Virus record (IMG/VR): IMGVR_UViG_3300021431_000005
Span: 53,053 to 117,052 of that record
From: a virus
Taxonomy: Duplodnaviria > Caudoviricetes
Length of the DNA stretch: 64,000 nt
Strand: one strand, 5' to 3'
The notes beneath the pieces were generated by a model. That model saw only the letters and a program-made list of their open reading frames with translations, did no database searches and was not told where the DNA came from. This document shows positions 509 to 62,357 of this stretch, piece after piece (position 1 is the first letter of the stretch; each line of letters starts with the position of its first letter). The translations under genes were made by a program, and so were the position numbers.

Positions 509-3500
509 TCATTTCTTGCCAACCAAACGATTCATGTTGGCTTCACGGATATACCTATCCATATATCCCCTGAACTCATCATAATTCTTCGCTCTGATGT
601 CGTTACCAGTAAATACAATAGTTGTAGAATTATCTATGCTTCCAGTAGTTCGCTCGGTAATTCTATCTATGGTTTTGTTATTCATGTAATTCGGAGTTCC
701 GTTAAAGGCACTTGGGTAATTCATAGAACCCGAGAATACACTTGGCGCACTATTCATAAACCTGTTCATCTGTTCTGTTTGTCCTGTACTCAATAATTTC
801 CACAGCGTTGAAATCTGCTTATTGTTGAGAACCATTTCAGGATTAGACGGTGTTCCATGAAGCATCGCAGGCCCCGTAAAGTCTACAATGCCGCCCTTAG
901 AAAATCCTCTGAATGCCTTTAAAACACCTTCAAACAGAGAACCGATTACACCAGATTCTCCACCTTCCCTCAATGCAGAGGTAAATGCTTTTAATGCAAG
1001 AGTTTGTTTCTCGGTTGCATTAGCAAATCTTACAGAGTATTCTTCGTAGAAATCAAGGTATCCCTCTTGTTCCTTCTTTAGCTTTTCATACTGGTCGATT
1101 TGCTTGTCATACTCTTTGATTACGCTCTGTGCATCTTCGATTTGAGGTTCGATAATATAGTGTAACTGATTCTGGAATCCTGCATAATTCAGTGCAAAGG
1201 AGTTAATAAGTCCAGTGTCTTTTGCCATAACAGCATCACGCCAGCCATAACCAAGTATAGCTGCGGCATTGATTTCGTCCTGTGCATTTTTATACGAGTC
1301 GATTGCTTCTTGCCATGCTTCCTTATACTTTTCGTATGCCTCGATCTTCTCGTCAATCAAAGCAGTTTCTGCATCCCGCTGGCTTTCAAGTTCAGCTATA
1401 CGATTATTATTGAGCGCATCATCATATTCTCGCTGTGCCTGTTCGAGTACCGATTTGTCGCTTTCTATTCTGAATCCGCCACGTTCTTTATCGTAAACTC
1501 TGACTTGGGTGTTCCTTGCTTTTGCGAGTGCCAGTTCTTTTTCTCGGAGTTCGTTAGCACGATCACGTTCTTCATTTTCAGATTTAAGAGCGTCGATCTC
1601 GGTGTTGTATCTATCTTCAATTAACTTCTTCTCGTCTTCGAGAGACTTGATTTCTCGGTCGATTGCGTTCGATACCGCACTTGCCGCACTTTCATAATTA
1701 GAGATGATTGTTTCAAGAGCTTCTTTTTGCTCATTGAGGGATTCAAGAATTTCATTCTGCTTATCTTTCTCTTCTTCAATAGCCTTGATTTTATCATCGT
1801 ACAACTTAATTTGATTTTTGAGTTTAATAATAACATCGTTATACCCCGTGATAGATTCGGGTAACTCTTGTAATCTTGCTATAAGATTGTCAATGGCTTT
1901 GATTTGAGATTTATCAGTAAGCGTAGTCCTAATACTTCGCAGAGTTTCAACCAAATTGTCAGGCGCATTATCTCTAAGTTCAACAAGTTTTCCACGGAGT
2001 TTATCTGTATCGTCTATAACAGATATAAGCTCAGGATGGGCAGTAACTAATCCCCACGCTTCGTCATTATATGTACCTTCGTCAATTGAGTCGATGATCT
2101 GTTGTATAGATTCTACATCGCTCTTAATTGCATCTGCCTCATCAGAATACGAAGAGTAATCAAAAGACCCAGACGCAGCCTCCCAAAACTTCTTCGTCAG
2201 TTCGTTTATTTTGCTCGCAGCATTTTTAGCCGCTTCTTCTGCACCTTCGCCGGTAAATTCAAAACCGACCCTAAGTTTGAGATAGTCTTCTCCACCGCTA
2301 AGTACCTTTTGTGCATAATCTCTGACTTCTTCGTCACTAAGGAATCTAGGTGTGCCGTCCTTATCGTATGTTCGAGAAGAAAAGTTTGCCGCACCATTTC
2401 CTGAATTAGAAACGATAGTGGTAACTTTACCACCATTTTTAAGCCAAGCGTTGCCGCCTTTTTCGTATTCTTTAAGGGTATCAAAATACTCCTTGACCTT
2501 TTCAGCAGGACTTCTCGTGTCAACATTAACAGGTTGGTTAAACAATATATCAAGCAGGGTTTTCCAACTTGCCGTATTTTCTTTCGCTTTAAGAATATCG
2601 TCGTTGAGTGCCTTGACTTTCTTAGTATAATCTGCATACTCAGCCGCATCACTCGGAGAACTGATATTATCAGGGGAAGTCACAGTATAGCTTTCTTTGA
2701 TTGTATCAAGCTGTTTCTCTTTATCTTCCGCCCATTTCTCATTCGCTTCAATTTCTTTCTGTATGGTTTCTTTGGTTGACTTAAAGAAATTGTTTCTTGC
2801 TGTTTCAATATCAGAAAGCGCAATGGTGTAGCCGTCTGCGGTTTTAGTAAACTTGTCGGCGAGACTAGCATCAATATCAATAAGTTCTTTAACGTCAGCC
2901 GCTGAAAGACTCTCGCCTTGTAATAGAGCAGAGCGAGCGGAATCAAGTCTCGAAAGGCTTTCATTGGTTTTACTGTATGTTTCGTCCTTGAACTTTTTGA
3001 GATTCTGATTATAACCATCAAGCAGACTGTTGATTCCCACGGTCTTTTCAGCAATCATCGACTCAATATCATTGAATGTGGATTCTACGGTGTCCTTTGT
3101 AGCCGTATCATTATCGTCAATGCTTTTAAGAGCTACGTCCTTTAACGTTTTGATTGTTTCAGACCATGTATAAATCTCGGCGCTGTTGGATGAGCCGACG
3201 ATGTTTTGAGCGTAATTGTAAGCGTTGTTTAGAATCTGCTGAATATCCTCGGGAATTTCACCCTCGTTGGATTCTCCACCGTCAATCAATTTCTGCATTT
3301 CCTCAAACGAAGAAATCAATTCTTTGTCGCGAGATATTTTTTCTTTGAGTTCTTTGCGCTTTTTATCAATCGCAGTTAACCACGCCATCTCGTTCTTGTT
3401 GCTCTTATCTATTGCGCCATCCAAGTCTTTCCAGAGTTTATCAAGAGTATCTGCCTGTTCTTCAAGAGTACCAAATATACCGATATAATTGTAATTTTTG

Positions 3501-4561
3501 CTACCTTCTATTCCTTGGCGATACCCAATGTTTTGGTACTTCTCAATAGTTTCTTTATATTTTTCCCAATTTCCCCAACCACTTGCCTTTATTTCTGTTA
3601 TACCTTTTGTTCCAAAAGAAAGATAAGTGCCGCCGTTGGACATTGTAAAATCTTTGCCAGCAAATTGACTCTCCTGTTTTAATTCATCTTTGGCATTATC
3701 ATACCCTGTTTGATTCTCGTTAATAAATTCCTTGGCTCTTTCATAACGAGCCTTCTGTATCAGGTTAAGATTCTCAACATATTTGCCGTTGACTAAATCA
3801 ACAGCCTTAGCTTCGTCACCCAGTTTTTCAACCAGCTTATCCTGAATAGAAGTCAGTTCTTCCTTCGACTTAGTTAAGTCTTCGCCGCTTAAAGCAAGTT
3901 TGTCATAAGTGTCAATCAGTTCTTCAATGGCTTCCTGTTCGTTTTTATACTCTTCGACATTTTCTTTGAGCTTTTCAATAGTCTCTTCTATATCAGCTTG
4001 TGCTTCTTTTTCTTTGTTGATAAACGTGGTTATTCCAGCGATTATACTAGAAATTGCCATAGAGACACCAAATGTTAATACTGCATTGAGTGCTACGTTC
4101 GCCGCTGTATAAGCCACAGTCTTAGCCGTTGCTCCGACAAGCTGTTTAGCGCAATCTCCAAATCCCATCTTTGCGCCGTTAAGCCCCTTAATAGTTCCGC
4201 CGAGTTTTCCATCAAGGTCTGAAAGAGCATTGGTGTATGCAGTTACCTGTTCGGGTGCGCCATGTTTTACTAGGTCATTATACTGCTTGATAGCTTTAAA
4301 ACGCCCTACGATGCCGTTAGACAAATCAATCTGGGACTTATAGAAACTCTCCATGCTTACATTGGCGGCGTCAGTGTTTTTAGCAAACTCAATAAGGTCT
4401 TTGTTTACGTGTTTTAGAGAGTCGAGATTGCCACCCCGATATATTGCAGTATCTATTTCTTTAAAATCATCAACAGAATATTGAGAAAGTTTATTATATT
4501 TTAACCCTTTTAAAAATTCTATCCTTTTTTTATTTGTTGTTTTGTCGTTTATATTTACTAT
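509..4561 (-). CDS. Tape measure protein, exon 2 (about 1350 aa)
   Basis: Long coiled-coil; C-terminal GFSKGGIVDFTGPAMLHGTPSNPEMVLN motif typical of TMP C-termini; no credible RBS/start of its own; joins exon 1 in frame after predicted splicing. Confidence 0.85.
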   Translation of the reverse strand: MVNINDKTTNKKRIEFLKGLKYNKLSQYSVDDFKEIDTAIYRGGNLDSLKHVNKDLIEFAKNTDAANVSMESFYKSQIDLSNGIVGRFKAIKQYNDLVKHGAPEQVTAYTNALSDLDGKLGGTIKGLNGAKMGFGDCAKQLVGATAKTVAYTAANVALNAVLTFGVSMAISSIIAGITTFINKEKEAQADIEETIEKLKENVEEYKNEQEAIEELIDTYDKLALSGEDLTKSKEELTSIQDKLVEKLGDEAKAVDLVNGKYVENLNLIQKARYERAKEFINENQTGYDNAKDELKQESQFAGKDFTMSNGGTYLSFGTKGITEIKASGWGNWEKYKETIEKYQNIGYRQGIEGSKNYNYIGIFGTLEEQADTLDKLWKDLDGAIDKSNKNEMAWLTAIDKKRKELKEKISRDKELISSFEEMQKLIDGGESNEGEIPEDIQQILNNAYNYAQNIVGSSNSAEIYTWSETIKTLKDVALKSIDDNDTATKDTVESTFNDIESMIAEKTVGINSLLDGYNQNLKKFKDETYSKTNESLSRLDSARSALLQGESLSAADVKELIDIDASLADKFTKTADGYTIALSDIETARNNFFKSTKETIQKEIEANEKWAEDKEKQLDTIKESYTVTSPDNISSPSDAAEYADYTKKVKALNDDILKAKENTASWKTLLDILFNQPVNVDTRSPAEKVKEYFDTLKEYEKGGNAWLKNGGKVTTIVSNSGNGAANFSSRTYDKDGTPRFLSDEEVRDYAQKVLSGGEDYLKLRVGFEFTGEGAEEAAKNAASKINELTKKFWEAASGSFDYSSYSDEADAIKSDVESIQQIIDSIDEGTYNDEAWGLVTAHPELISVIDDTDKLRGKLVELRDNAPDNLVETLRSIRTTLTDKSQIKAIDNLIARLQELPESITGYNDVIIKLKNQIKLYDDKIKAIEEEKDKQNEILESLNEQKEALETIISNYESAASAVSNAIDREIKSLEDEKKLIEDRYNTEIDALKSENEERDRANELREKELALAKARNTQVRVYDKERGGFRIESDKSVLEQAQREYDDALNNNRIAELESQRDAETALIDEKIEAYEKYKEAWQEAIDSYKNAQDEINAAAILGYGWRDAVMAKDTGLINSFALNYAGFQNQLHYIIEPQIEDAQSVIKEYDKQIDQYEKLKKEQEGYLDFYEEYSVRFANATEKQTLALKAFTSALREGGESGVIGSLFEGVLKAFRGFSKGGIVDFTGPAMLHGTPSNPEMVLNNKQISTLWKLLSTGQTEQMNRFMNSAPSVFSGSMNYPSAFNGTPNYMNNKTIDRITERTTGSIDNSTTIVFTGNDIRAKNYDEFRGYMDRYIREANMNRLVGKK

Positions 4562-4589
4562 CGGACTTATAAATATATGTGGGAATATA

Positions 4590-4618
4590 TTGACAAAAAT
4601 ATAATTGCATGATATAAT
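4590..4618 (+). promoter_or_regulatory. Consensus sigma-A/sigma70 promoter driving the intron cargo gene
   Basis: TTGACA-17 nt-TATAAT with extended -10 TG; AAAGGAG SD at 4623-4629. Confidence 0.9.
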
Positions 4619-4629
4619 AATCAAAGGAG

Positions 4630-5097
4630 ATGATGAGAATGTCAGAGAAATATGTATTTATATGCCCAAAGTGTGGTCAAGTGGAGGGAATTACTTATCC
4701 TCATGGAACCATCGTTAATTGTTGTTTCTGTGAAACTCAATTATTAGAAACCAGTCTTACATTACATGAATCGGCTGAAGCAATAAGAAATGGTACGATT
4801 GAAATTATTGACCGCAAACTGTTCGAGCAGTATGTAAAAAACAATCCCTTGTATGACCAAAATGAGGCAGAACTTTCAAAGCTTAAAAGAGAAACTAATA
4901 AGATAGCGAACGAGATGCGGTACGCCGCCGAACGTGCTGTCAAAGAAGCAAACAAACCGCATTGTCCAGTATGCAACTCAACCAATGTTGAGCGGATCGG
5001 CGCAGTCCGCAAAGGTGTTTCAATTGCCGTTTTCGGATTGTTCAGCGGTGATATTGGAAAGACGATGGTTTGCAATAATTGCGGATATAAGTTCTAA
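4630..5097 (+). CDS. Zn-ribbon protein with short hydrophobic segment (moron-like), antisense inside the TMP intron
   Basis: CPKC, CCFC, CPVC and CNNC pairs; GVSIAVFGLFS hydrophobic stretch; own promoter and SD; no homing endonuclease motifs recognised. Confidence 0.85.
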   Translation: MMRMSEKYVFICPKCGQVEGITYPHGTIVNCCFCETQLLETSLTLHESAEAIRNGTIEIIDRKLFEQYVKNNPLYDQNEAELSKLKRETNKIANEMRYAAERAVKEANKPHCPVCNSTNVERIGAVRKGVSIAVFGLFSGDIGKTMVCNNCGYKF

Positions 5098-5451
5098 AAA
5101 CATTGTATTGATTTCGCCCTTTTCCCACTATGGCGGCGTGACCATATATGATTTTTCAGTATTAAATACTGTTGTCCAGAGTACCCCATCACGATTTTCT
5201 ACATATCGTTGTAGTTGACCGTGCTACCATTATACTCGTTGAACCTTCCTTTTCCAAGGCTTGGCTGCGGATTCGATAGCATTTCAGCTATCCTCCCCGA
5301 GCGAGAATCATAAAACTCGCTGTGCTATGCACCATGTTCGGTAGTTTTTCCAAAGCTCTCTTGTTGATATTACGAATACAATATCAACTCGTTCCGTGTT
5401 ACCACCAGAGCTTACTCGGGCATATTCGCTGAGGGCAAACATTTTAGCCCT

Positions 5452-8400
5452 ACCCGAGCCTGTTTTCATTTGCAGTCCAGTTAAACCGAACGCAGTCGCT
5501 ATTCCTGCGCCTGCCGCCGCACCATTCTTGGCGATTCCGTCTAATAATTCAAGAAGTGTCTTTGCGCCGTCAATGAGAAATTTGACGGCTTCGCTGTTTA
5601 CGGTATCAACTGATAACTGCTGCCATGTGGACTTCAACTGATTAAGTTTTCCGTCTATAGAATCAAGAGAAGATTCTAACTCCTTAGAAGCCGAACCTTC
5701 TGCAAGTCCCTCGTTCAAATCTTCAACAACTTTTTCTGCTGTCTCGAAGTTTCCAAGGATCGCCTGAACTGTATTAAGACCAACTTTACCACCAAGCATT
5801 TCGGCAATATCTGCTTGCTGCGAATCAGTTAACGTGTCATACACCCCAGAGATTTCTTTGAGTATCTGGTATGTAGATTTAAAAGTATTTTCGTCTTGCA
5901 TAATGTCAATTCTTGTAATACTTTTTATCTTATCACGCAGTTCAGCAGTAGTAATTGTCATTTCTTCTGCATCTTCGCCAAGCTGATCCGTTGTGCCTCG
6001 GATTCTTGCAGAAATAGATTTAAGTGCCGTGCCAACAGTTTCCGTATTCTGTACGATAGTATTGGCAGAAGTAATAAGACCTATGGATTCGTTGAGATCG
6101 TTGCCTGCCGCATTCAAGGATGCCGCCGACCTCTGTAACGCATCGCCTACTCCCTTGCTTGTGATTGCGAAGTTGTTGCCAGTATAATTGAACTTATCAA
6201 CAATTTCTTCTGCGGTTACGCCGATTTTCTCATAAGCCTGCATTGTCGAAATAATGCTTTGGCTCGCTGTCTGAATATCTAAATCGTCGCCGACGGTTTT
6301 ATAAACCGTTGCAAGTTTACCAAGATTTTCAGCTTCATTCAACGATTTACCTAATCGACTGAACTCAGAGGTTGCATCAACATAATCCGTGAGTGTAGCA
6401 CCTATATCCACAGAACGACCGCCTGCTGTATCTAAATACTGTTTGAGCTGTCTCTCGTTTGCATCTGTAACCTTTCTAAGATTCGTCATTGCAGTATCAA
6501 CTTCATGAACCTGAGTAACCATATCTTTGAGCAATCTCACAGTATAGTTCAAACTCTTGGTAACAAACGCCCAACCGCCGTACTTCTTATACAATTCTCC
6601 AAGTACGTTACCGAAAGTCTTGCCGGACACGCCAGCTTCTTTAACGGTTCTGTCAAGTGCCGACATATCCGCTCTTAATTTATTCAGGTCTTTATCACTT
6701 TGAATTGCGCCCATGCTTATCCTATTAGTTAGTTCTTCATAGGCTTTTGCGAAATAAGGGTCTTTAAGCGCCTTAGAGTTATCGTCACCCCATTTTCCGA
6801 GTCGCTTTACTGTTTCTTCGTATTTTTTCTGAAAAGCAATTGCTGCGTTATCTGCCTGCTCCTGCTCTTTCATCGCTTTATTACTTTCTTTTTGAGCAGT
6901 TGTAAAATTATTTACGGCTTCGGTAACTTCGTCAAGTCTGTTAATATATTCTATTAAAGGCTGAATTGAATTACCAAAGTATTGTTCTTTAAGAAAATCA
7001 GCGTCTTTTCCCTGAGCAGATGCCGCATTCACGATATATTCATTCTTTCGGCTCTCAAAATTGTTTGATAACGCTTCGAGCTGATTATTGTCAAGATTAC
7101 CGATATTTGCCAGAATCTTTTGCGTTTCCCCACCGCTATCTCTGAGTTGTTTTAATAGCTTTTTAAGTTTTTGAACCTTTTTAGAGAAGTCGTCTATCTC
7201 GATATTACTACCATCGAAATTAAACATTGTTAGTCTTGCATCGTCATAATCCTCGTATGCTTTGTGAATCTCGGATTCGTATACTTCAGGTTCTTCGGCT
7301 AAATATGGATTCTTTGAATAATTGCTTATTACCCCAAGTCTATATTCGAGAACTTTGAGTTTTTCTGTGTTACCGCCTGCAGCTTCAACCATTTTAATTG
7401 TACTACGCAATGTCTCTAACTTCTCATTTGCTTTCTCAGATTCAGAAATGATCTCTCTGAGTGAAATAGCTAAGTCAGAAACGGTTTGAATATCATGAGA
7501 TTCTTTTTGTAAATAATCAGTAAATCCCTGATCTTGACTATACAAATCTTCTTTGATTTGATTAACTGTATTACCAGATAAATTGGGTCGTTGAACCTTT
7601 TTGAGCATACTTTCGGCATTTGTATAAAAAGTAAGTATTTCATTAAACTTATGTTCAAAATCATCTATTGGTTGAGATGTGGCATTAGGATGATTATCAA
7701 AATACCGTTTTATGTATTCAAATGAATCAAATACTTTTTTTACCGAGTCAAAATAAGTTGTAATATCTTGCCCAAGAGTCGCAGCTCTTTTAACAATTGC
7801 AGGATTGCCATTGGTAGTTATGGGAAGAGTTTGGGAATACGACAAGAGAGTATTTATGTCACTAATGTTTTTTTTCTGCCAATTCCCGAAGGATCTATTG
7901 TGTTCTTCCAACTCCTCCATTAATTCTTTGCGTTTTTCTTCAGATAAGTTTGCCTTGTTTATCTTCTTCACAACGTCTTCAATGTTTGAATAGATAACAC
8001 GCATCTGTTCATATAATTCATTAAAGCCAGCTGTTGTGTGTGGCAATTGAGAATTGGTTTCTTTTAAAGATTTATCGAGAAATTCAAATAAATCATAATT
8101 CTCTTTTACTGTTGAAGATATTTCAAACGCTCTCTGTCTATCAGAGGCGGCGTTTTCAATTCCGCCAACGGTATTATCCTGAGTTTTAGAAGCGCCGCTG
8201 TTAACTATAGTTGGTTGATTTTTTTGTAACAGCTGCATAAGCTGTGCGAGCTGCGCTTGTGTCAGAAGACCACCGCTTGAATTTACTAATGCACTAAAAT
8301 TAGTAACCTCAGTTTTAAACGTCTTGCCAAGTTGCGCTATTATATTATCCAACTTCTTGCCAACGACATCAGCGTAATTGTCTTTGTTGTTAGCATTAGC

Positions 8401-10236
8401 AATCGACTTGTTGATTGAATCCGCCAAGGTTGCAATCTGTGTTTTGTAGAACACCTCGTTCACAGACTGTTCGTTGTCAACAGATTCAACTTGTATAGGC
8501 GAGTCAAACTTAGAAATCAGATTGTTGATAGCTTCTATTATTGTGTTAAGAAGATTGTTTACTTCGGGGGTCGTAGTATCATTCTGCTCTGTGTTTTCTT
8601 TTGTCTCAATAGCTTCGCTGATAAAGTCGTTTGTCCATTCGAGCCTGTTTTGTATATCCACGATACGCTCTGTTAACGATTCTTCATAAATGGGTTCTAC
8701 ACTTTCATCATTGTGCATTAACTGAGACTTTAAAAGACTATCTTCTGCAAAATCAACATTGATAGTTTGATTAAGTTTTTCGTAAATCGAATTAAGTTTT
8801 GTGCCAATAGAAGCAAGATTATTTATAATGTCAGGATCCACTGGTGTCTCAGGGGGAGGAGGTGAAGTTGTTGTGTCAGGATTTGATTCTTTTGGTTTAT
8901 TGTTTTGCTTAATTTCGATATGTTTTGACAAAACATCACTCTCGACGCTCTCTATCTTTTTGAGTCCGTCAGCAATCATCTTTATAGATTTTGCGATTGT
9001 ATCAAGTTTATTTGGAACTACAAAATCAATGTTGATTTCATGAGTCTTATTGTCTATTTCATTGAGTATATCAGACAAAACTTTTAGTCCATTATCTTGT
9101 ATATCAACTTTAATCTTAACGTCCTTGGATTCTACATTTGACAACTGTCCAATTGTTTGATCCAATTTGCCGACTTCTTTATTTACGTTCCCAACATTGC
9201 TTTCCAATGCTCTGATTGTATTATTGGTTGCATGAATATATTCTTGTAAAACAGAAACAGTTTGGCTCATTGGCGAAAGCGTAGTTTCGTTTACCGAATC
9301 AAAAGTATCCTTAAATATTTTTACAACCTGTATCATTCGTTTTATAACATCTTCAAGATTTTGAAAAGGAGAAGCCATTCCTTTTCCCGCATTTTCAATC
9401 GCATCAGTTGTTTTAGTTAGTTGTTTTATTTCTTTTGGTACAGGGAGTATATCGCTTGCTTTTATTGTGTCTTGGGTTAGTTTAAAATTATTATTCCATG
9501 CCCTTCCAAAGCTTGATGCTGAAACCCCTATTTCAGTATACAGGGCTTTAAAGTCATCTTTATATTGTTTAGTTTCATCCGAAAAAGATTCGAGAGTTTT
9601 AATACTACCCTTAATATTTGAATTGAAGTCTAAACTGGGATCAATTTTTAATAGTGTTTGAAGTTTATTTAATACACCATAGGCTTTATTTGCAGTATCA
9701 GACAGCATTCCAATTTCATCAACCATCGCTTCGTATGCTTCCTTTGTTGTCTTGCTGTCTTTTCTGCCGGATTGCATGGCGCGTTGTAGATTACCGAAAC
9801 TTTCTACCGCCTCTGGATCGCCAAGAGTTTCGTACATATTGGTTATTTCACTATTTAAATTAAGAAACTCGCTTTTTAAATTATCAAATGTTTTTTGAAG
9901 CGTTGCCTGATCCGTCATAATATCAGGTCTAATTTTCGAGAGAGTCCTAAGTCCTTCGAGAACTTCTTTGCGAAGTCCCTCGGAATCAAACTTGACTTTA
10001 AAAGTCTTGTTTATTATTTCGCTTCTGCCACCCATATTGAGTATGCGTCCAATAGCTTCGTTTACTTTGTTTAATTTTGAAGCTTCAACTGGACTATCGT
10101 TTTCTTTGATTATATAATTTGCCGTAATATTTACGCCTTTGGACTCAAGCTTTTGTATCTTTTTTTCTAAATCATCCAGTTCTCCGTTGTTGACTTTTGT
10201 ATCAAACACTATATCAAAATTGCTATTTTCATCCAT
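5452..10236 (-). CDS. Tape measure protein, exon 1 (about 1595 aa)
   Basis: TP901-type TMP core (VDTAMTNLRKVT, VDKFNYTGNNFAITS, GTALKSISARIRG); GAGGTG SD before ATG 10236. Confidence 0.9.
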
Positions 10237-10246
10237 TTGTCTCACC

Positions 10247-10747
10247 TCACTTCAATGTTTTCTTTATTGATTTTGCTACGGCTTCTTTTAATTTATGATC
10301 GGAGTGCAATTCGTTATATACCTTTTCGGTCAACCCCATACGCGCCCTTCTCCAAGAATAATGGTTTATCTGAGGTATTGTAGGAATCATACCAATACGT
10401 CCTTTATCCATCCATTCATATAAAAGCCCTTTTTTATTTTCTGATATAATAGGCGTACCAATTAGACTCTCGTTAGGTTCGGCTATGTTTCCTGCAATTA
10501 TTTTATTACCATCAAAGTTAACTTCGGTATTTTCTCTATCTATCAATCCGTCATTGTCACCACGTCTTTCATACATAGTTGGAGAATAACTGTCGTATAC
10601 ATTTTCTTTGATTATATTATACATTGCATCCTTTATAATTTCTGTTGCTTTGTTACGAAATTCCGAATCCCGAGACAGCTTTTGTGTTGCATCATCTACT
10701 GTTTCTTGAAGTATTTTACGAACTTCTTTTGCAGAAAACTTAGCCAT
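10247..10747 (-). CDS. Tail-module protein (HK97 gp10-like or tail completion, tentative)
   Basis: VYDSYSPTMYERRG motif; position before TMP. Confidence 0.55.
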   Translation of the reverse strand: MAKFSAKEVRKILQETVDDATQKLSRDSEFRNKATEIIKDAMYNIIKENVYDSYSPTMYERRGDNDGLIDRENTEVNFDGNKIIAGNIAEPNESLIGTPIISENKKGLLYEWMDKGRIGMIPTIPQINHYSWRRARMGLTEKVYNELHSDHKLKEAVAKSIKKTLK

Positions 10748-10754
10748 TTATAAA

Positions 10755-11249
10755 TCACTCCTTTGTATCTTCGTTTTCTTCAAGCGCTTCTATGGGTATC
10801 TTGTTGAGCATTTCGATAAATGCTTCATTGGAGAAAAGCGTATAGAGCGTGTCGATTACCTGTGTATTTATATCCTTTATACCCTTGCGCACCTTATAAA
10901 GTTCATCGTCAATATACTCATTGATAGTTGCACAAAGTTCATTATAGTCGTAATCAAGTTTCGGGACTACCTCATTATTAAATCTGTCCATAAAATCCCT
11001 GCTCATAATAACACCGAAGACATCTTCAAGGTCGTAATCTGTGCCAAGGTCGATACCAAAAATATGTCTGAGGATTGTCAATCTAATTCCAAACCTTCTG
11101 AACAGCGGTCGGAAGTTGCCATTTTCTGTATTAAAAAGTATCAATGCAGCACCCTTAGAAATCTCAACAAGATCTTTTACTGACAGTGTTGTGTTTATTT
11201 CAAATTCGCTAAAGCGATTCTTATTATCAATAAATTCTTTGATTGTCAT
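10755..11249 (-). CDS. Putative tail assembly chaperone
   Basis: Acidic protein between major tail and TMP; GAGGA SD. Confidence 0.5.
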   Translation of the reverse strand: MTIKEFIDNKNRFSEFEINTTLSVKDLVEISKGAALILFNTENGNFRPLFRRFGIRLTILRHIFGIDLGTDYDLEDVFGVIMSRDFMDRFNNEVVPKLDYDYNELCATINEYIDDELYKVRKGIKDINTQVIDTLYTLFSNEAFIEMLNKIPIEALEENEDTKE

Positions 11250-11322
11250 AATAAATTCCTCTCTTTCAAAAACAGTAAAATATAGGTAGTGTCAATATCG
11301 TTATCATTAACCTACCTTTCAT

Positions 11323-11715
11323 TCAATCAGCTTTTCTTTTACGCTTACGTTTGTTTCTATTATCAATCTCTTCATTGATTTCTTCGATGGCATCGGCAAT
11401 GCTTTCGCCATTCGCAATATAATCTTTTATATCTTCTTTTGTTTCCGCTGCTACTTCGTCAACGGTTTTGTTGTAAAGTTCTTTAACTTCTTCTTCCGAC
11501 TTATCGGTTCTTTCAGGTAAAGTGTTTATGCTTTTATTCTTCGCTCTCGCATCAAGTACCTCTCGAACATAGAGTTCATAATGTTCTGTACAGCAGGCAA
11601 CTGCTCGCCATGAATTTGTTCTATCGCAATAATCACAGGCATAATAATGTTTTCTGCCGCCGTCCTCGCCCAGTGTGCATCCACTATATTTACAAACATG
11701 ATTTGTTTTCTTCAT
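11323..11715 (-). CDS. Cys-rich hypothetical protein in tail module
   Basis: C..C motifs (YACDYCDR, WRAVACC); AAGGAGG SD. Confidence 0.65.
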   Translation of the reverse strand: MKKTNHVCKYSGCTLGEDGGRKHYYACDYCDRTNSWRAVACCTEHYELYVREVLDARAKNKSINTLPERTDKSEEEVKELYNKTVDEVAAETKEDIKDYIANGESIADAIEEINEEIDNRNKRKRKRKAD

Positions 11716-11743
11716 CGGAATCTCCCTCCTTTATATATAAATA

Positions 11744-11782
11744 ATAGGTGTCCCGAGTTTATTCAGGACACCTATATTTTTA
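11744..11782 (-). terminator. Intrinsic terminator after major tail gene
   Basis: ATAGGTGTCC...GGACACCTAT inverted repeat with A/T tails. Confidence 0.75.
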
Positions 11783-12634
11783 TTAGTCGTCAAGAGCCTC
11801 GTATTCGGTCTTGGTCTTAATTACCTCGTCCTCATCGTAGATTACCATATCCCACAGAAGAGTGGAAGCGCCCTTTGCACAACCACCGGACAGAGCCTCG
11901 ATTTCAATATTATGAGTCGAGAAATCAGAGCCGAAGTTCAGGCTGAATGTACCAGACATCTTAGCCTTGTAGTATGTAATCTTAGCGTGGTAGCTCTTAT
12001 CGTTACAAATATCCTTGACAAAAATATCAAAGATTGCCTTACCGGTCTCAGAGAACTTGTTGTTTTCATTCACGATTCTCTTACCAATCTTCGCCTTAGT
12101 GTCATAGAATGCAACGATTTCGTCATTCGCAGCGAACACGCCAGTAGGCAGAGTAATAGTCTTGGTTTCGGGATCATATGCGAAAGCAGCCTCCGAAGCC
12201 GCCGCAGCAATAGGATACTTGTCACCAAGAGAACCATCGGGATTCTTCTTGTAAATATAAGCAATCTCAGCACCAGTTGCGCCGACAGCGTAGAACTCGG
12301 TGACTGCGGTAGTGCCGTTAGTAGTAGTCATAATATCCATGTAGTTATTAACGGTCTGAACACCCTTCTCGACCTCAGAACCCACCTGAACCGCAAGCGC
12401 ACCGTCAACGATAGTACCGTTGGTTGCAGTAAAAGTCGAAGTCTTGTTTCTATCGGTAGCACCGATACGAGTACCATTCTTGCCCTCTGCATAGATAGTT
12501 TCCGAATCGACACTCATTTCTGCTTCCTGAAGATCGTCAAAGATAAACTTGCAGACGTTATTTGCAAGGTCGAACCATGTGATAGTTTCAATACCCTGAA
12601 CAAGATACTTATCCGAAATAATCATAAGTTTCAT
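11783..12634 (-). CDS. Major tail protein (probable)
   Basis: 283 aa beta-rich protein, high-expression codon bias, followed by terminator, upstream of chaperones/TMP. Confidence 0.7.
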   Translation of the reverse strand: MKLMIISDKYLVQGIETITWFDLANNVCKFIFDDLQEAEMSVDSETIYAEGKNGTRIGATDRNKTSTFTATNGTIVDGALAVQVGSEVEKGVQTVNNYMDIMTTTNGTTAVTEFYAVGATGAEIAYIYKKNPDGSLGDKYPIAAAASEAAFAYDPETKTITLPTGVFAANDEIVAFYDTKAKIGKRIVNENNKFSETGKAIFDIFVKDICNDKSYHAKITYYKAKMSGTFSLNFGSDFSTHNIEIEALSGGCAKGASTLLWDMVIYDEDEVIKTKTEYEALDD

Positions 12635-23977: not shown

Positions 23978-24061
23978 TGGGGAGGGTTGGACTCGAACCA
24001 ACAACGTTTCTAATGTCACGGTTTTACAGACCGCTTGCTTCACCAATTTGCATACCGCCCC
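23978..24061 (-). tRNA. tRNA-Tyr(GTA)
   Basis: Cloverleaf; anticodon arm GCGGT-ctGTAaa-ACCGT; long variable arm; GTTCGAG T-loop. Confidence 0.88.
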
Positions 24062-24182
24062 AAAAATAAAGAGCCAGCACAACGCTGACTCAGCTATATA
24101 GCTTATTAAAAACCTTTCGAGTTTGCCACCTAATAGTGAGATAGTTACTGTCGAAAGATTGCTGTCATGAGTAAATTAGTAT

Positions 24183-24961
24183 TTAATCCTGCTCAATCAC
24201 AGGGAGAATGTTTTGTTCCTTTAGTTTTTCATATAGAAATAATCTTCCCTTTTGTGTCCAATAAGTATGCACCCAAGAACGCTCTCCATTTTGACCCGTC
24301 TTAGTTTTTGTGTATCCTTTATCGGCATACTTCTGATACAATACCCAAGTATCACCGACTTTGTACTGTATGCCATTATCATGCAACCACTTGTTTAACC
24401 AGTTCGCAGATTCACCATAGTCTTTTGCAATCTGAGTTACCGAAAGAACATCTTTTGTTTGAAGCACAAGATCGTAGTATGTAACCTTGGGTTCATACTC
24501 TGCAATCTGTTGTGCCTGAATTGCATTTTCGGCTTCAAGCTCCTTGCGTCTTTGACGTTCTTCTTTTAGTGCAGTCAAAGCCTCGATTGCAAGGTCTGGA
24601 TTATTTATTATTTCATCAATTGCAAATAGTCCATGCCTGCGAATGGACGGAAGAACCTCACTTGTTACCCAATGCTTGAATTTTTTGGCATCGGGCAATT
24701 TGCTTGAAAGGATAAGACTATACAGACCGCTTTCGTTAATAAGCCAACCGCCACGCTGTCCGAGATTAAGATTGCAACTCAATAGCGTTTTGCTATTGAG
24801 TTTATCTTCTATATCAACATGATCTCCTATTGCTTCATTAGGATTACTATACCCAAGAATAGCAGCTACATCTTTTCCAACAAACCACGGTTCGCTGTCA
24901 ACACTTATCGTTCTTACACTACCAAATTCTTCATTCTCAAATACTTTTACAATTTCATTCA
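24183..24961 (-). CDS. BRO-N / KilA-C (ANT) antirepressor
   Basis: EPWFVGKDVA, INESGLYSLILSS, FKHWVTSEVLPSIRR; C-terminal TQIAKDYG, WTQKGRLF. Confidence 0.92.
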
Positions 24962-25054
24962 TAATCATTTCTCCTTTAATAATATATATATCAAAGGTGG
25001 ATGAGAAAGTTCCCCGTAATTCCATTACTGACACACAGTCAGCCTATGATTATT

Positions 25055-25765
25055 TTACATTTTATCTGCCCACGCCGATAGTTCGCCCCTGTAATTCTTA
25101 GATAAGTGACACACCCTTGCCCACTCTTTATCCTTAAAGTGGTCGATACATTTAACAAGTCCAGAATCCTCGGGCTTGATTCCTTGAATTTGTAAGGTTG
25201 AACCAATAACACACACATAACAATCATCATGACAGCGAGTGAGAACTGCCTTTAATTGCTCTTTGGTCATGCACTGCGCTTCGTCAATGATTATAAACTT
25301 CTTAGAAAAATCGCTACCAAGAATATACACATCGGTCATTGTTGTAAAAATTCCCGTTCCCATTTTCTGATTTATGTAAGTATCATCATTGATAACCGCC
25401 ACCGGGTTCTCTCCTAAATTGATTAAGGTGTGTACTAACGGAGCCATGTAGGGTGCTTCCTTGTTTTGCTTTTCGCCCGGAAGGAAGCCTAGTCTGCCTT
25501 CGGAACTCGGTGTTCTTATATAATAAGCTTCATTACATATACCATACTTTACATACATCAATGCAACCGCAACCGCAAGAGTTGTTTTACCTGAACCGGC
25601 CACTGCGTCAGCCACAACTAACCTCACGTTTCTATCCCAAAGGCTGTCTCGATAGTATAACTGTTCGGGATCAGAACAGTCGAGACCGTAAAAGGGATGG
25701 TCTTTAAGTGTTAAAGGGGGATTGCCGTAAAGACTCTGTGCATTTTTCTTTGTATTCTTTGCCAT
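25055..25765 (-). CDS. phoH: PhoH family ATPase
   Basis: AGSGKT, LGFLPG, IIDEAQ, LTR motifs. Confidence 0.9.
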   Translation of the reverse strand: MAKNTKKNAQSLYGNPPLTLKDHPFYGLDCSDPEQLYYRDSLWDRNVRLVVADAVAGSGKTTLAVAVALMYVKYGICNEAYYIRTPSSEGRLGFLPGEKQNKEAPYMAPLVHTLINLGENPVAVINDDTYINQKMGTGIFTTMTDVYILGSDFSKKFIIIDEAQCMTKEQLKAVLTRCHDDCYVCVIGSTLQIQGIKPEDSGLVKCIDHFKDKEWARVCHLSKNYRGELSAWADKM

Positions 25766-25780
25766 ATTATAACTCCAAAT

Positions 25781-26404
25781 TTATAGTATTTCATCAAGGT
25801 CTTCAAGTATCGTATTGACACATTTGTATTTGAGCTGTTCTTCGGTGGTAAGGAACCAATCCGTCTTTGACTTTCTCGAAAGAATGTTCTTGGGTATCTC
25901 TGACCTTTCAAGAATATAGGCGTATGTTTCATCTATCATTTTTTTGTAAGACTTTGTTCCTTCTTTTACTTCTTCATAGCTGCCTACCACACCGCCAGAA
26001 CCACTGTGAATAAGCATCTGTGATCTTGGCATACAATATCTTTCATGTCCAGCAAGAAGCAAAAGTCCTGCCGCACTATATGCCATATTCATATTTACGG
26101 TGATAACAGGAGTTTTTGACCTTTCAATTATCGCAATAGTTGCAAGCATAGAAACAAGACTTCCACCCTCGCTATTTATAAGAATTACAATCTTCTTTCT
26201 GCCTGCAATCGGAATGCCTTTGTCCTGTCGATTATATTCAAGTATCTGTGTTCCGACCTCATTCAAAAACATCTCGTTAATTTCATAATCCACAACAATT
26301 ATTCTATTGCTAAGATTGTTATAATAGTTTACAAGATCGGGATCGGGCAGCTTGTAATCTGCGGTTTCCTTTGATATGGGGATTGTGATAGTAAAATCTT
26401 CCAT
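25781..26404 (-). CDS. ClpP-like protease subunit
   Basis: INSEGG, AYSAAGLLLLAG (Ser), MLIH (His), DWFL motifs. Confidence 0.88.
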   Translation of the reverse strand: MEDFTITIPISKETADYKLPDPDLVNYYNNLSNRIIVVDYEINEMFLNEVGTQILEYNRQDKGIPIAGRKKIVILINSEGGSLVSMLATIAIIERSKTPVITVNMNMAYSAAGLLLLAGHERYCMPRSQMLIHSGSGGVVGSYEEVKEGTKSYKKMIDETYAYILERSEIPKNILSRKSKTDWFLTTEEQLKYKCVNTILEDLDEIL

Positions 26405-26465
26405 TCTTTACATTTCTCCTTGTGTGGTTTAAAAAATTATTAAGCCCTGCTATCAGAACTTGTGA

Positions 26466-26539
26466 TACGCTCGACAGGAATCGAACCTGTGACCTACACT
26501 TTATCAGAGTGTCGCTCTAGCCGACTGAGCTACAAGCGC
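26466..26539 (-). tRNA. tRNA-Ile(GAT)
   Basis: Cloverleaf GCGCTTG...; anticodon ctGATaa; GGTTCGATTCC. Confidence 0.92.
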
Positions 26540-26547
26540 ATATATAA

Positions 26548-26618
26548 TGGCGAGTTTGGGAGTTGAACCCAAAGCCACGGAATATGAATCCGTAATGTTA
26601 CCTTTACACCAACTCGCA
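26548..26618 (-). tRNA. tRNA with CAT anticodon (Met or Ile2), atypical
   Basis: ACGGA-ttCATat-TCCGT arm; GGTTCAACTCC T-arm; U1.C72 mismatch. Confidence 0.75.
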
Positions 26619-26715
26619 ATAATCGGTTTACCCCTTTCAGACACATCTTACTCAGGGCTATTATCCGTCCGAGAACGATAACTACAATAGTTGCAACCGA
26701 AAACTACTTGACGCA

Positions 26716-26788
26716 TGATCGAGAGGGGATTTGAACCCACTGTTACCAACGTGAAAGGCTGGTGTCTTTACCACTTGACTACTCGACC
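26716..26788 (-). tRNA. tRNA-Glu(TTC)
   Basis: CCAGC-ctTTCac-GTTGG arm; GGTTCAAATCC. Confidence 0.88.
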
Positions 26789-28845: not shown

Positions 28846-29834
28846 CTACTTTTTTATTTCTATATAATTAACACCATATAAATGAATGATGCCGCTATCG
28901 TCCTGTCTAAGATACCCGACAGGCTCTTTGCTCCTTAACACCATGTCAAAGAACGCTCCGTTTCTTGAACTAAATAATATATGGAACAGAGACATACTCA
29001 AATCCTTGTTCTCATCCTTTTCAAGTTCTTTGAGTAAGAAGAACATCGTGCTGTTACTTATTTTCATATCAGTAATCGCATTAGAACAGCGCTCTCGGAT
29101 TTCGTTCATTGCTTTAAACTTTTCTTCATTCGTCGAGTTAGAGGCAGAGTAAACCATGTTAACATCGGCTTTCATTTCTCTGACCATTTCAAGAATGCGA
29201 ATAATCTGATCTCGCTTCTGCGCTCCCTTTTTGTATAATGAGCTATCTATTATATCAATGAATGCAACCTGATTTTTTCTGCCGTCCCACCTATATCGTG
29301 GTATATGGAATCTGCGAATAACAGACTGAACGTAGTCCATCGTTGTATTATGCTGTTTGTAATTCTTTCGCTTTGAATTATAATACCCCTTAGACCTTGC
29401 AAGATGTCCAAAGAAGTTTGGTTTTATGTAACGTTGTTTGTTGTCCAACCGCAGGTATTTGTCTTTGAGGATCCCGATTTCTTTTGCGCTATCTAACTGG
29501 TATTCTTTCTTTGCTTTATCAATCTCTACATTAGATAATATTGCCAGTTTCACAATATCATCGTACAACTCTTTGTTGTCCTCAAACGTTTCACCGCTGT
29601 TGATTTTATCCCAGAATAATGTATTAAGCTCTTGTGACAGGTTAACAATCTCTCCAATCTTATTAACACTTGTCCTTATATCAAGGTCGCATTTGTCGGC
29701 ATTATTGTAATAACGTTTTCTTTTGCTTGCTGATACTCTTGAAGTCGGTATAGCAAAGTTATTATAATTTTTCTCAGCAGCATCAATAAGTAGTTTGTTG
29801 TTTGTAAGTAGCATTGTATCGCTATCAAAGTCGC
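28846..29834 (-). CDS. YonO-like single-subunit RNA polymerase, exon 2
   Basis: Starts with (C)DFDSD catalytic motif; IGEIVNLSQ and EIDKAKK motifs. Confidence 0.85.
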
Positions 29835-30144
29835 CATTGAACCCTCGGTTTCCCGATATTTCAGTAGGGGATTAGACTATTTCTTTATCTCAAAGAGATA
29901 CTCGGCACTTCCACCGCAGAATTACACTGCAAGTGTATAGATTTCATCGACCAAATTGGTCGGTATATCTTAGTCGTTACATCTTCAAAGCCGTTACCGG
30001 CAATGCTTGACACGACATTATCATGTGGAACTAAATTATAATTTAGTTCTATTTAGATTCCGTCGTTAGCAGCTTTCGCTACACCCTGTATGTACAGGTT
30101 CACCGAGTTTGCTACCACACGTCGCCGCATGGTGGGGCGCATTC
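29835..30144 (-). mobile_element. Group I intron (ORF-less, 310 nt) in RNA polymerase gene
   Basis: P1 GGGU/GCCC; R GUAACGACUA and S GAAAUAGUCU (canonical P7); terminal G; splicing gives KLNG-C-DFDSD. Confidence 0.88.
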
Positions 30145-31933
30145 ACCCGTTCAACTTTTCAAGCAAATTCTCTCCAATACTATTTACACAAACTATCTCT
30201 TCCGAAAGATGAAAATATCTATCAATCCTCTCATCCGCCACATTATTGGCAAGCAGAATATTCCCTGCACAGATATGCGGACTTCTCGAACCTAATAATC
30301 TTGTTCCATAATCAAATCTAATATTATGTATATTCCCGACACCGAGTTCAGACTCGCCAGTAAATCTCCCAATTGAATGGAGTAACATCTCGTAAGGGTT
30401 GCCGAACAATGTAGAATAGTTGCCGTTGACAAGCACATGACCCGATTGAAGGTTTTTCTTAAACGATATAAGCAAGTCTCTAAGAAAATCGTGATACAGC
30501 TTTGTCTCAACGAAGCGATCATTAAGACCGAGCATCTGATAAATAACATCGTTCTTGTTGTTTATTTCCTCAAATGTTATTTCCTGATTTTCGGGATATT
30601 TGATATGGTTTCTAACTACCGCAGGATTATAGCGCAGGCTTGTCATGTATTCAAACGACTGAGCAAGTAACCGTTCTACTTCTTCGTATGACAACTGTAA
30701 TGTATTCAATAATTGATAGTGAGTCTGCACAAGTCGCCCCTCGAAATAATGAGTTGGCTTCTCATGCTTGACAATTCCAAATGACGTTTCCAAATTATCA
30801 AGCCACTGATCCAATGTTCCAAATTTAAGATATTTAATACTGCTGGGGGTTGTTATAAGCTTTATCTCGTCAATACTTTTCGCCCATGTGTAGCCATTAA
30901 GCTGCGATACATCGGTAATGCCATTGTCGGCAAAAAACTCTTGAATGTGTGTAGAGAACGCCGCAGTTTTAAAGAAGCGGTTTCGTAATAATAGCATTCC
31001 GTACTTCTGATATTTGCCAAACAGAGAATAGTCCATGAGGGTTTGACCGTCCCAAATACTGTTGTCTATTTCTACTTCTTCATTGTTGGTAACGAGTGTT
31101 TCACCGTCAAAAGAAACTGCGGCCGCTTTTGATTTAAATACGCTGTGATAGTCGTCAATGACCAGTATATTCTCGGGCTGTATTTCAACCGTATCAATTA
31201 TACTACTAAGAGTAAGCGATATATATGCTTCGTATGCGGCAAGGTCTATCTCGGCATTGTTCTTTATTCTGAGTCCACAGCATTCCCACTTGTGCATCCT
31301 GCTGTACAACTTCTCGTCAATAAACAAGCATTTACCGACACGACTGCTACCACTACTGCGTTTAAAACGTATGTATTTTATTCCGTCACACAAGAATCCG
31401 TTAGTGTAAAGTTCTTGTCTCAAATCCGCAACTGTATTCAAGACCTCTATGTTGTCCTTGGCTTTGTATTTATTGTCCTCATAATAAAAGAACCGCCCGA
31501 GTTGTTCGTCATCAACAGGGGCGGTTACAGTCGTATTTACTTTTATGGCTATCAGTTCATTGTCTTTTAAACAAACGCAATCATCAAGTTCTATATCATT
31601 TATATCATAACCGAACTTGACGTATGTATCGGCGGTGACTCGATTGTATTCTTTGTTGCTGTAATTAAACGTAACGTTTATGACTCGCTGTGAATATTCC
31701 TTGCCTGAGTCCATAAACGAAAAGCGTTTATTGTGGTAGACCTTTTGATAAACCTCACGAAGTTTAAAAAGGTCAAGACAGTAGTCGAGATCGCCCGAGA
31801 ACTTTTTCAGACTGATAGTTCCGTCACGGCGGCGGATATTATATCCAATAGGGTTGGGTTTGTTATAATGGTTCGCTATGAATATATCTTTGGCATCGAG
31901 GTTAAGGATTTTAATTGACTTTGGTGTACTCAT
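30145..31933 (-). CDS. YonO-like single-subunit (RdRP-fold, double-psi) RNA polymerase, exon 1
   Basis: RSSGSSRVGKCLFI, WDGQ, LLRNRFFK, RSPH motifs; spliced product about 925 aa; SD before ATG 31933. Confidence 0.85.
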
Positions 31934-31949
31934 TCGCATCTCTCCTTTA

Positions 31950-32699
31950 TTACTCAAAAGCATGGTCTATAATATCGTTTTTCTTTTCGTATACTGTGAA
32001 TTGAATATTCTGAACTTTACCTTTTGTGTAAACCTTGTCATACTTAACTTGAATATCAGTTTTGGCATTGATTTCTTCAATTACCGGCATGAGTATTTTT
32101 TGGTTCATCTTTTGAAAGTTGCTCGTATAGTAATGCGATGATATGCGAAAAATATCTTTATTTAGTGTTGTTAAATCAATCATCCAATTTCGCCTAAAAG
32201 AATTATCTTTTAAATATTGATAGAGCAAGATGCTATACGAGCTTTTCATCATTATTGTATTTTTTAAACTGTACTTGACATATCCCATTGATTCAATATT
32301 AAAGAATAAGCACTTGGCAAGTTCACTGCATTTTAATCTTATCTTGACAATGCCAGTTTCTTCATCTGTGAATAAAGCAGCGCCATCAAACAAATTACAA
32401 ACAAGAATACCGTTTTCATTGTTGTATGGAACCGTTGTTTGAATCTTTATAATTTCCGAAAGACTTTTGATTAATGAAGGTTTGTTAATCCTTTGTACCC
32501 CAAGTAATTGTTCATACTCGTTAATATCAAATTCAACCACTGTGGATTCGGGATCGTGCGAGTTGATACGACTCAAATATGTGTCTAAAATTTTGAGTTG
32601 TCCTAATGTGTATGGCACCTCTGATGCCATTACCAAGGGGTGACTTTTTTGGACTATGTGGCTACCAGAGATTCCGTTTAATACTTTTTCATCATTCAT
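31950..32699 (-). CDS. Plasmid-type replication initiator (RepB/Rep_3 family)
   Basis: KSHPLV, LKILDTYLSRIN, SSYSILLYQYL, KILMPVIEEIN..TDI.V.Y pattern; iterons directly upstream. Confidence 0.85.
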   Translation of the reverse strand: MNDEKVLNGISGSHIVQKSHPLVMASEVPYTLGQLKILDTYLSRINSHDPESTVVEFDINEYEQLLGVQRINKPSLIKSLSEIIKIQTTVPYNNENGILVCNLFDGAALFTDEETGIVKIRLKCSELAKCLFFNIESMGYVKYSLKNTIMMKSSYSILLYQYLKDNSFRRNWMIDLTTLNKDIFRISSHYYTSNFQKMNQKILMPVIEEINAKTDIQVKYDKVYTKGKVQNIQFTVYEKKNDIIDHAFE

Positions 32700-33881: not shown

Positions 33882-33940
33882 TTGAAAACTTCCTTTCGTT
33901 ATCTGGGACTTGCAACTTTTCTATCCCTTTCGGTAATACA

Positions 33941-33969
33941 ATTATACCATACTTTTCACTATTTGTCAA
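33941..33969 (-). promoter_or_regulatory. Consensus sigma-A promoter for recombinase/rep operon
   Basis: TTGACA-17 nt-TATAAT with extended TG on minus strand. Confidence 0.88.
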
Positions 33970-62285: not shown

Positions 62286-62357
62286 TGCCATGTAGCCAAG
62301 TGGTAAGGCAAGAGACTTTGACTCTCTCATTCGCTGGTTCGAGTCCAGTCATGGCAA
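62286..62357 (+). tRNA. tRNA-Gln(TTG)
   Basis: TGCCATG/CATGGCA acceptor; AGAGA-ctTTGac-TCTCT arm; GGTTCGAGTCC. Confidence 0.93.

Follow-up and report, generated by a model that had tools for sequence, protein, structure and literature searches.

The question raised by this locus is how the gene for a tape measure protein (TMP), an essential virion gene, can be broken in two by a segment that holds a further gene on the opposite strand. The stretch under study, here called the window, is the right-hand 64 kb (64,000 nt; positions 53,053 to 117,052 of IMG/VR record IMGVR_UViG_3300021431_000005) of a complete gut phage genome of 117,052 bp with direct terminal repeats, and its TMP is read on the minus strand as two open reading frames (ORFs), the first at 5308-10245 (1645 codons) and the second at 509-4624 (1371 codons). 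We consider it probable that positions 4562-5451 of the window represent a working self-splicing group I intron, which carries a site where accessory genes are tolerated within the TMP gene. A group I intron with these boundaries had been put forward in a first-pass annotation of the window, and it is upheld by the covariation of the RNA structure, by the in-frame junctions and by the alignment of intronless TMPs.

Positions 549-951 of the phrog_4211 profile align to the first ORF and positions 958-1640 to the second; the profile is colinear over the break, and therefore the two ORFs are the halves of one protein. Exon 1 (5452-10245, minus strand) comprises 1598 codons from a GTG at 10245 and encodes a PhageMin_Tail domain at residues 1280-1486, and its unspliced frame reads through into the intron for 48 codons, as far as the stop at 5308; exon 2 (509-4561, minus strand) comprises 1350 codons plus the stop. 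The fusion KTGSG|IVNINDK, which had been claimed to result from the excision of 4562-5451, is reproduced in silico with a product of 1598 + 1350 = 2948 amino acids (aa), close to the earlier figure of about 2945, and the predicted ligated-exon sequence reads ...GGCUCGGGU-AUAGUAAAU.... Among longer relatives, 377 TMPs of 2,800-5,000 aa were recovered. Furthermore, the intronless TMPs P0025 (3144 aa) and P0026 (2862 aa) each align in one high-scoring segment pair that runs through residues 1598/1599 of the spliced product and is ungapped at the junction, so that no break occurs here in the homologous tape measures. No close relative was found when the end of exon 1 was used as a query for related loci, and zero matches were obtained both for the region compared by blastn with 50,697 phage records and for the beginning of exon 2 compared by tblastn with phages.

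The intron is 890 nt long on the minus strand, with the 5' splice site after U5452, which forms a U.G pair with G5421, and the 3' splice site after the omega-G at 4562. All of the motifs listed in the first-pass annotation (P1, Q, R, S, P9.0, the stem, the promoter and the ORF) are present where it had placed them. In particular, P1 is formed by CUCGGGU (5458-5452) with GCCCGAG (5421-5415), with the U.G at the cut, and it is followed by Q (5273-5260), R (5244-5233) and the 3' strand of P7, UACUC (5183-5179). The ribozyme core (5115-5451) includes P1/P1a, P2/P2.1, P3, P4-P6 with three extra hairpins, P7, P8, P9 and a 3' H-type pseudoknot (PKa, 5146-5142 with 5132-5128; PKb, CGCC with GGCG). The P3/P7 pseudoknot is present in the core, P7 shows a bulged C followed by G-C and A-U, and P7.1/P7.2 are absent from the intron structure. 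P9.0 pairs GGAC (about 5177-5174) with GUCC (4566-4563), which directly precedes the omega-G. An unconstrained minimum-free-energy fold of 362 nt of the window recovered P1, P2.1, P5, P6, P7, P8 and P9, with a z score of -3.2.

The cargo is looped out by a long-range closing stem between GUGGGAA (5122-5128) and UUCCCAC (4579-4585), the latter located 17 nt before the 3' splice site. Counterparts with other sequences, inspected by eye and in three subfamilies only, occur in the related locus L034 (GUGGG/UCCAC; relatives, whether loci or contigs, bear L-numbers) and in subfamily A (CAAAAGUG/CACUUUUG). A further observation regards window positions 4573-4585 and 5122-5147, where the distal 3' strand UUCCCACAUAUAU is complementary both to GUGGGAA and to the 5' strand of the pseudoknot (AUAUAUG); the same double complementarity is found in subfamily A (CACUUUUG..GACCAC). 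To judge from the pairings, it could represent a switch between the local pseudoknot and the long-range closing helix.

Since the Rfam model gave nothing at this element, relatives were sought by other means. When the end of exon 1 served as a tblastn query, the faecal phage scaffold L005 (36% aa identity) was recovered, whose TMP ORF stops within an RNA element visibly homologous to that of the window. Two conserved strings derived from this pair, GGTGGTRACACGGAAC and GAATCCGCAGSCAAGC, were then used to scan IMG/VR, where each matched at least 110 contigs, with a usual spacing of 130-137 nt between the two; in about 100 of the matched contigs, the element lies directly 3' of a TMP exon-1 homologue ending at a position equivalent to residues 1581-1598 of the window protein. 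The 16-mer GGUGGUAACACGGAAC, located in the internal loop of P2 (5391-5406, minus strand), is invariant in all members of the family as GGUGGURACACGGAAC, with variation at the R alone. The family profile, searched with nhmmer, recovered a single copy in the window.

The structure, hand-written from the window sequence, was evaluated on alignment A1, which contains 31 diverse copies from six subfamilies. Standard pairs occupy 86.6% of the cells, compared to 37-44% after displacement of the 3' partners by 1-3 columns; two-sided changes occur in 65 of the 92 pairs, and none of 500 shuffles reached the observed values. Pairing amounts to 94.5% in P1, 95% in P3 and 100% in both P7 and P8, with three or four compensatory pairs each. 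At the guanosine-binding site, columns 343/446 are G-C and columns 344/445 are A-U in all 31 copies; a bulged base precedes these invariant P7 pairs, and the pair beyond the bulge covaries. The U.G at the 5' splice site is found in 28 of the 31 copies, and three P1 pairs show compensatory changes that track the exon. In fact, P1 follows the exon in six subfamilies, being CUCGGGU/GCCCGAG in the window and CUGGGU/GCCCAG, CAAGGGU/GCCCUUG, UGUGGGU/GCCCACA, CGCGGGU/GCCCGCG or UGGGGU/GCCCCA elsewhere.

The 3' splice site is delimited by analogous changes. In the closest subfamily, the intron ends as ...GUCUG|AUAUU in L034 and L191, compared to ...GUCCG|AUAGU in the window, and P9.0 compensates accordingly, with GGAC/GUCC+G in the window, AGAC/GUCU+G in L034 and GGAC/GUCU+G in L191. 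The joined frames read KTGSG|IVN... in the window and KTGSG|IFD... in L034, where exon 2 is homologous and P10 reaches 6 bp (AUAUUC/GAAUAU). When subfamilies A, B, C and E were searched automatically, 21 distinct loci showed a 3' splice site that follows a G, keeps the frame and is accompanied by a P10 of 5-8 bp, with introns of 1.7-5.2 kb; the P10 sequence is subfamily specific and covaries (ACAAUC, GCAUCA, AUAUUC, GUUUUU). From these sequence features we infer that the intron is spliced.

Both the intron and the antisense gene of the window recur in the loci L190 and L191, and the comparison with them shows how unevenly the region has diverged. The last ~400 nt of exon 1 are 98-100% identical between the window and L190. 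With respect to L190 and L191, identity is 99.1% in the ribozyme (3 changes in 348 nt), 77-79% in the cargo gene, 49-57% in the 3' splice site region together with the first 150 nt of exon 2, and 74-98%, in a mosaic fashion, deeper in exon 2. The ribozyme is near-identical while its flanks diverge, and therefore it is either strongly constrained or recently exchanged; the identity profile places a recombination boundary at the junction between core and cargo. Across the family, the divergence of intron and exon is correlated (Spearman, 0.67), and some pairs combine exons 1 that are 98-100% identical with cores of only 81-84%. Descent is vertical for the most part, with local exchange added. 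As a separate observation, several exon-1 matches (L006, L054, L063, L082, L085, L090, L119 and L190) show another interruption 100-190 codons upstream of this intron, where insertions of 0.27-1.9 kb occur, and the TMP of L190 is called as five pieces; to judge from these breaks, the tape measure genes of such relatives probably hold further introns.

On the strand opposite to the TMP, the intron loop contains the complete expression unit that the first-pass annotation had described. A predicted sigma-70-type promoter, TTGACA-17-TATAAT (4590-4618, plus strand), matches at 12 of 12 positions and carries the TG of an extended -10; it is followed by an AAGGAG and by an ORF of 155 aa (4630-5097, plus strand) starting at the ATG at 4630, although the ATG at 4639 is favored as the start, because it lies 9 nt after the AAGGAG, and would give a protein of 152 aa. 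The same promoter is present in L190 and L191. More generally, among 30 distinct regions upstream of genes of the F0 family, to which the window protein belongs, 25 contain a sigma-70-like promoter with a spacing of 17 nt and a score of at least 10/12. In subfamily A, the -35 of the antisense promoter falls inside exon-2 codons and the -10 inside the intron. In subfamily A loci, L028, L042, L120 and L017 among them, the exon-2 codons AAT-AAG-TCA-A give the -35, TTGACT, when read in reverse complement, and the codons beneath this -35 are conserved despite protein divergence.

Homologues of the window protein share 81, 74, 71, 59 and 44% identity in other contigs and 30-36% in Clostridia genomes and prophages. 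The ratio of nonsynonymous to synonymous divergence (dN/dS) is 0.17-0.20 at a dS of 0.6-0.9, and therefore the antisense gene is real and under selection. The protein consists of two CxxC...CxxC zinc ribbons joined by helices, and invariance is limited to the eight cysteines together with Pro113, Ser117 and Gly152, without extending to any His, Asp, Glu or Asn. Only the C-terminal ribbon, CPxCxSxN...GK...CxxCGxxF, is common to the F0 members, since the N-terminal parts differ between subfamilies. The AlphaFold model (mean predicted local distance difference test score, or pLDDT, 84.6) likewise presents two ribbons connected through helices, residues 127-139 forming a disordered loop; compared with the PDB, it gave no match at an E value of 1e-3 or below and no nuclease fold, and the only strong viral structure match was an uncharacterised phage ribbon protein. 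Searches of Pfam, PHROGs, PADLOC and PDB sequences returned only generic zinc-ribbon similarity, with library hits below cut-off and weak PDB hits to ribosomal and RNA-polymerase ribbons. The profile of the C-terminal ribbon recovered 3,665 cluster representatives; among the 150 matches listed, the ribbon is nearly always C-terminal, the proteins measure 76-293 aa, and the longest ones carry only further ribbons.

A homing endonuclease (LAGLIDADG, GIY-YIG, HNH, His-Cys box, PD-(D/E)xK or EDxHD) was considered and rejected for this protein, for which no such family hit, invariant catalytic residue or PDB fold was found. The claim that the cargo does not encode an endonuclease thus stands, and from sequence and structural model we conclude that the antisense protein is not a conventional nuclease. 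The modelled fold suggests binding to nucleic acids or proteins.

The content of the intron across the family was surveyed in 44 loci where the interval from the ribozyme to exon 2 could be resolved. This interval measures 0.8-5.2 kb and contains ~43 ORF families in ~25 gene orders, on both strands. Of the 44 loci, 39 carry F0, across four ribozyme subfamilies, and in every one of these F0 is antisense with no other gene between it and the 3' splice site; the variable genes lie between F0 and the ribozyme, and the cargo other than F0 amounts to 0-4 kb. The identified genes encode a PemK/MazF toxin (8e-20), a HEPN protein (pEK499_p136, 3e-16), a retropepsin-like aspartic protease, and coiled-coil and membrane proteins. 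None of 27 cargo proteins tested belongs to a LAGLIDADG, GIY-YIG, HNH, PD-(D/E)xK or transposase family, the sole transposase-related signal in the cargo being sub-threshold Zn_ribbon_IS1595 matches to the ribbon, and PADLOC reported nothing for ten of the cargo proteins. In subfamily A, sense-strand promoters of the form TTGAC(A/T)-17-TA(T/G)(A/T)AT occur directly after the ribozyme. The comparison of related TMP loci proposed in the first-pass annotation did find the same intron with different cargo, as the nearest subfamily relative (L034/L045) has an unrelated antisense membrane protein in the place of F0, with the same promoter layout. It follows that the idea of a splice-out landing pad, or safe harbor, is largely supported and that of an exchangeable cassette slot holds for the variable part of the cargo, but not for the zinc-ribbon gene itself, which is nearly fixed.

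Some more distant loci resemble this arrangement. In L195, L196/L197 and L192, F0-like genes lie antisense just upstream of the distal TMP ORF, with no hit to the ribozyme profile or to Rfam. L195 presents (5860-12591) a 5.8-kb island with a PemK toxin and helix-turn-helix genes between a PhageMin_Tail ORF and the distal ORF, and an R-like string, GGTTCAAGAAAACTACATAATGG, occurs 3' of exon 1 at a locus of this type. These features hint that the arrangement may be another type of intron. F0 homologues are also found outside any TMP, beside the his operon, in L193/L194, and the family profile gave zero hits in L192-L197.

On these grounds, it is possible to propose how the locus works. During late transcription, the TMP pre-mRNA would fold the ribozyme within the 5' 340 nt of the intron, the closing stem and P9.0 would return the distant 3' splice site to the core with the ~530 nt between them looped out, and splicing would yield a single TMP of 2948 aa. 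If splicing restores the full TMP, the DNA in the loop would be harmless to the essential gene and silent in tail assembly. The antisense gene would be transcribed independently from its consensus host-type promoter, presumably by the host RNA polymerase early or in lysogeny, giving a double zinc-ribbon protein of 152-155 aa that would benefit the phage. F0 would thus represent a conserved fixture beside the 3' splice site, with accessory and conflict genes coming and going between it and the ribozyme. The antisense orientation at the 3' splice site would keep ribosomes off the RNA segments needed for exon ligation, and such ribosome avoidance may explain why the orientation is constant. We also entertain, as a tentative extension that we would not expect to hold in full, that F0 with the 3' splice region on one side and the ribozyme on the other serve as recombination anchors, between which defence and counter-defence cassettes (MazF, HEPN, protease, membrane proteins) are swapped, and that the ribbon protein belongs to a new class of intron-associated factors selecting for retention of the element.

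Several points weigh against the interpretation of 4562-5451 as a working intron with a tolerated gene site. Rfam RF00028 (Intron_gpI), a covariance model of the kind with which the first-pass annotation had suggested checking the element, gave no hit to it, either at the gathering threshold or at an E value of up to 10, in the region or in the whole genome, and Rfam gave zero hits in the relatives L004/L005, L190, L192, L195 and L196. In the window copy, P4 is short (3 bp) with its first pair mismatched, the P4-P6 domain is unusual for its extra hairpins, and P10 has only 3 bp (AUA/UAU). The exact spliced-junction patterns of the window and of subfamily A, searched in IMG/VR, revealed no intronless allele of a close relative; two source-sample metatranscriptomes yielded nothing from the stretch save a 42-nt piece of another element, and no joints were found in the DNA runs examined. 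Moreover, the strict position and orientation of F0 is not what a neutral parking place predicts, and the gene may be tied to the biology of the intron. The silence of Rfam and of the metatranscriptomes, the weakness of P4 and P10 and the fact that gene callers give two or more TMP pieces would fit a locus with no splicing at all, with two TMP polypeptides being made and the RNA being a decayed intron, or another cis-element, beside an ordinary intergenic island of accessory genes. We regard this as highly improbable: every core helix shows compensatory changes, with P1 and P10 following the exons, and only 3 substitutions in 348 nt separate the window from L190 beside a gene with a dS of ~0.9. 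Furthermore, neither a start codon nor a ribosome-binding site for exon 2 is present at the junction, exon 2 begins exactly in frame in every subfamily checked, and homologous TMPs are single proteins across the junction point.

The near-universality of F0, which a neutral parking place leaves unexplained, gives room for an intron-linked or an antisense-regulatory role. The antisense protein could be the intron's own factor, namely, a new homing or targeting protein or a maturase-like, trans-acting RNA-binding helper for folding around the large cargo loop. Its presence in 39 of 44 loci and four subfamilies, always antisense and abutting the 3' splice site, would fit such a role, as would the F0-like genes in the same position in the more distant phages (L195, L196/L197, L192), the frequency of zinc ribbons as RNA- and DNA-binding modules, consistent with the weak similarity to ribosomal and RNA-polymerase ribbons, and the fact that the cargo tested offered no other candidate mobility gene. 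However, neither the invariant residues for a nuclease site nor a nuclease fold were found, the N-terminal domains differ between subfamilies that have only the ribbon in common, F0 homologues exist outside any TMP, and the ribbon module marks thousands of clusters of small proteins; the intron-exon correlation is what mostly vertical descent would produce. Since the intron of L034/L045 does without F0, the gene appears to be dispensable, and we consider an own-factor role decidedly unlikely. Somewhat less unlikely, and compatible with the intron as a tolerated gene site, is that antisense transcription rather than the protein is conserved, with the promoter firing through the ribozyme into exon 1 and restraining the TMP or its splicing early or in lysogeny. 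The promoter is conserved in 25 of 30 distinct upstream regions, no terminator is found between the gene stop at 5097 and the ribozyme, L034 retains orientation and promoter with another gene, and lysogeny is possible given three tyrosine-recombinase genes. On the other hand, the low dN/dS indicates purifying selection on the antisense ORF, and therefore the coding sequence matters; moreover, a phage polymerase may be responsible for late transcription and be unaffected by such interference.

Other features of the genome deserve mention. A second candidate group I intron (29852-30195, minus strand), with no ORF inside, lies between ORFs 30143-31963 and 28846-29814; it has a full-length, sub-threshold RF00028 hit (25 bits, E value of 4e-4 on local search), and the family profile does not match it. 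Six tRNA genes are present, four of them clustered at 23978-26788 (minus strand) and the others at 36816-36904 and 62286-62357 (plus strand). The three tyrosine recombinase (Phage_integrase) genes are located at genome positions 31930-32451 and 33751-34326, outside the window, and 86256-86759 (about 33204-33707 of the window), and therefore lysogeny and expression from a prophage are possible.

The usual picture of phage group I introns is that of selfish pairs, in which a ribozyme is combined with an endonuclease. The family described here, widespread in gut phages, has a conserved ribozyme and no endonuclease that we could find, and it places kilobases of accessory and conflict genes in an essential virion gene. 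If the ribozyme splices, such introns would be protected sites for accessory genes, a hotspot now annotated as broken tape measure genes; they would also constitute a well-sampled, covarying ribozyme family missed by the standard model, and would offer a defined context in which to test what the small zinc-ribbon proteins of phages do, a very large family with 3,665 clusters. Morons are independently transcribed accessory genes of the late region, with their own promoter and usually a terminator, nonessential for lytic growth and variable between related phages. The window gene has the consensus promoter, no terminator and variable neighboring cargo, but it belongs to a gene family that is nearly constant. 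In the literature, we found no report of a phage intron family combining a conserved antisense non-nuclease gene with variable multigene accessory cargo.

Precedents are known for a TMP gene interrupted by a group I intron, for a group I intron with genes other than endonucleases and for an intron ORF in antisense orientation. The TMP-IVS1/2/3 introns interrupt the tape measure genes of Bacillus cereus-group prophages (Tourasse and Kolsto 2008, PMC2504315), and Intron_gpI is annotated in the TMP of the Clostridioides phage phiCD211 (NC_029048.2). Like the window copy, they are group I introns of the self-splicing type that interrupt the TMP of a siphophage or prophage from Firmicutes; their P1 and P10 are adapted to the site and, in some copies, a complete homing endonuclease gene is lacking. 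However, they are of class IA1 or IA2, are found by standard models and occupy other TMP positions, unlike the window family, and they have not been reported with antisense or multigene accessory cargo, both of which occur in the window family; by nhmmer, with zero hits of the family profile, the phiCD211 intron is unrelated to it. In our hands, Rfam 15 run at the gathering threshold missed the annotated Intron_gpI of phiCD211 (L004, 6975-7240).

Group I introns are able to hold other protein genes (PMC4227781), and in the IStrons, CdISt1 of C. difficile and BcISt1 of B. cereus, a 5' ribozyme is combined with non-endonuclease genes at the 3' end (PMC4227781). An IStron and the window intron are alike in the 5' ribozyme, in the non-endonuclease genes preceding a distant 3' splice site, in the excision of the whole unit by splicing (predicted in the window) and in their occurrence in Firmicutes. 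An IStron was nevertheless rejected as an identity for the element, as no transposase family was found in the window cargo or in the 27 tested cargo proteins. In fact, the IStron cargo is an IS200/IS605-type transposon, mobile and present at many sites, whereas the window family has no transposase, occupies a single conserved site in one gene and carries accessory and conflict genes together with one conserved antisense zinc-ribbon gene. The T4 introns of td, nrdB and nrdD (sunY) carry I-TevI, II and III (PMC2988022, PMC3984707), and their ORFs have their own promoters (PMC2988022). As in the window, these are phage group I introns with an ORF looped out from a peripheral element and a promoter independent of the host gene; different from the window ORF, which is antisense and without nuclease features, the T4 ORFs lie on the sense strand and encode GIY-YIG or HNH homing endonucleases. 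Finally, the L2066 group I introns of nuclear ribosomal DNA contain antisense homing endonuclease genes (PMC9548176) and thus share with the window intron a protein gene on the strand opposite to the ribozyme. They reside in eukaryotic ribosomal DNA and encode His-Cys box endonucleases, whereas the window intron resides in a protein-coding gene of a phage and encodes a non-nuclease protein.

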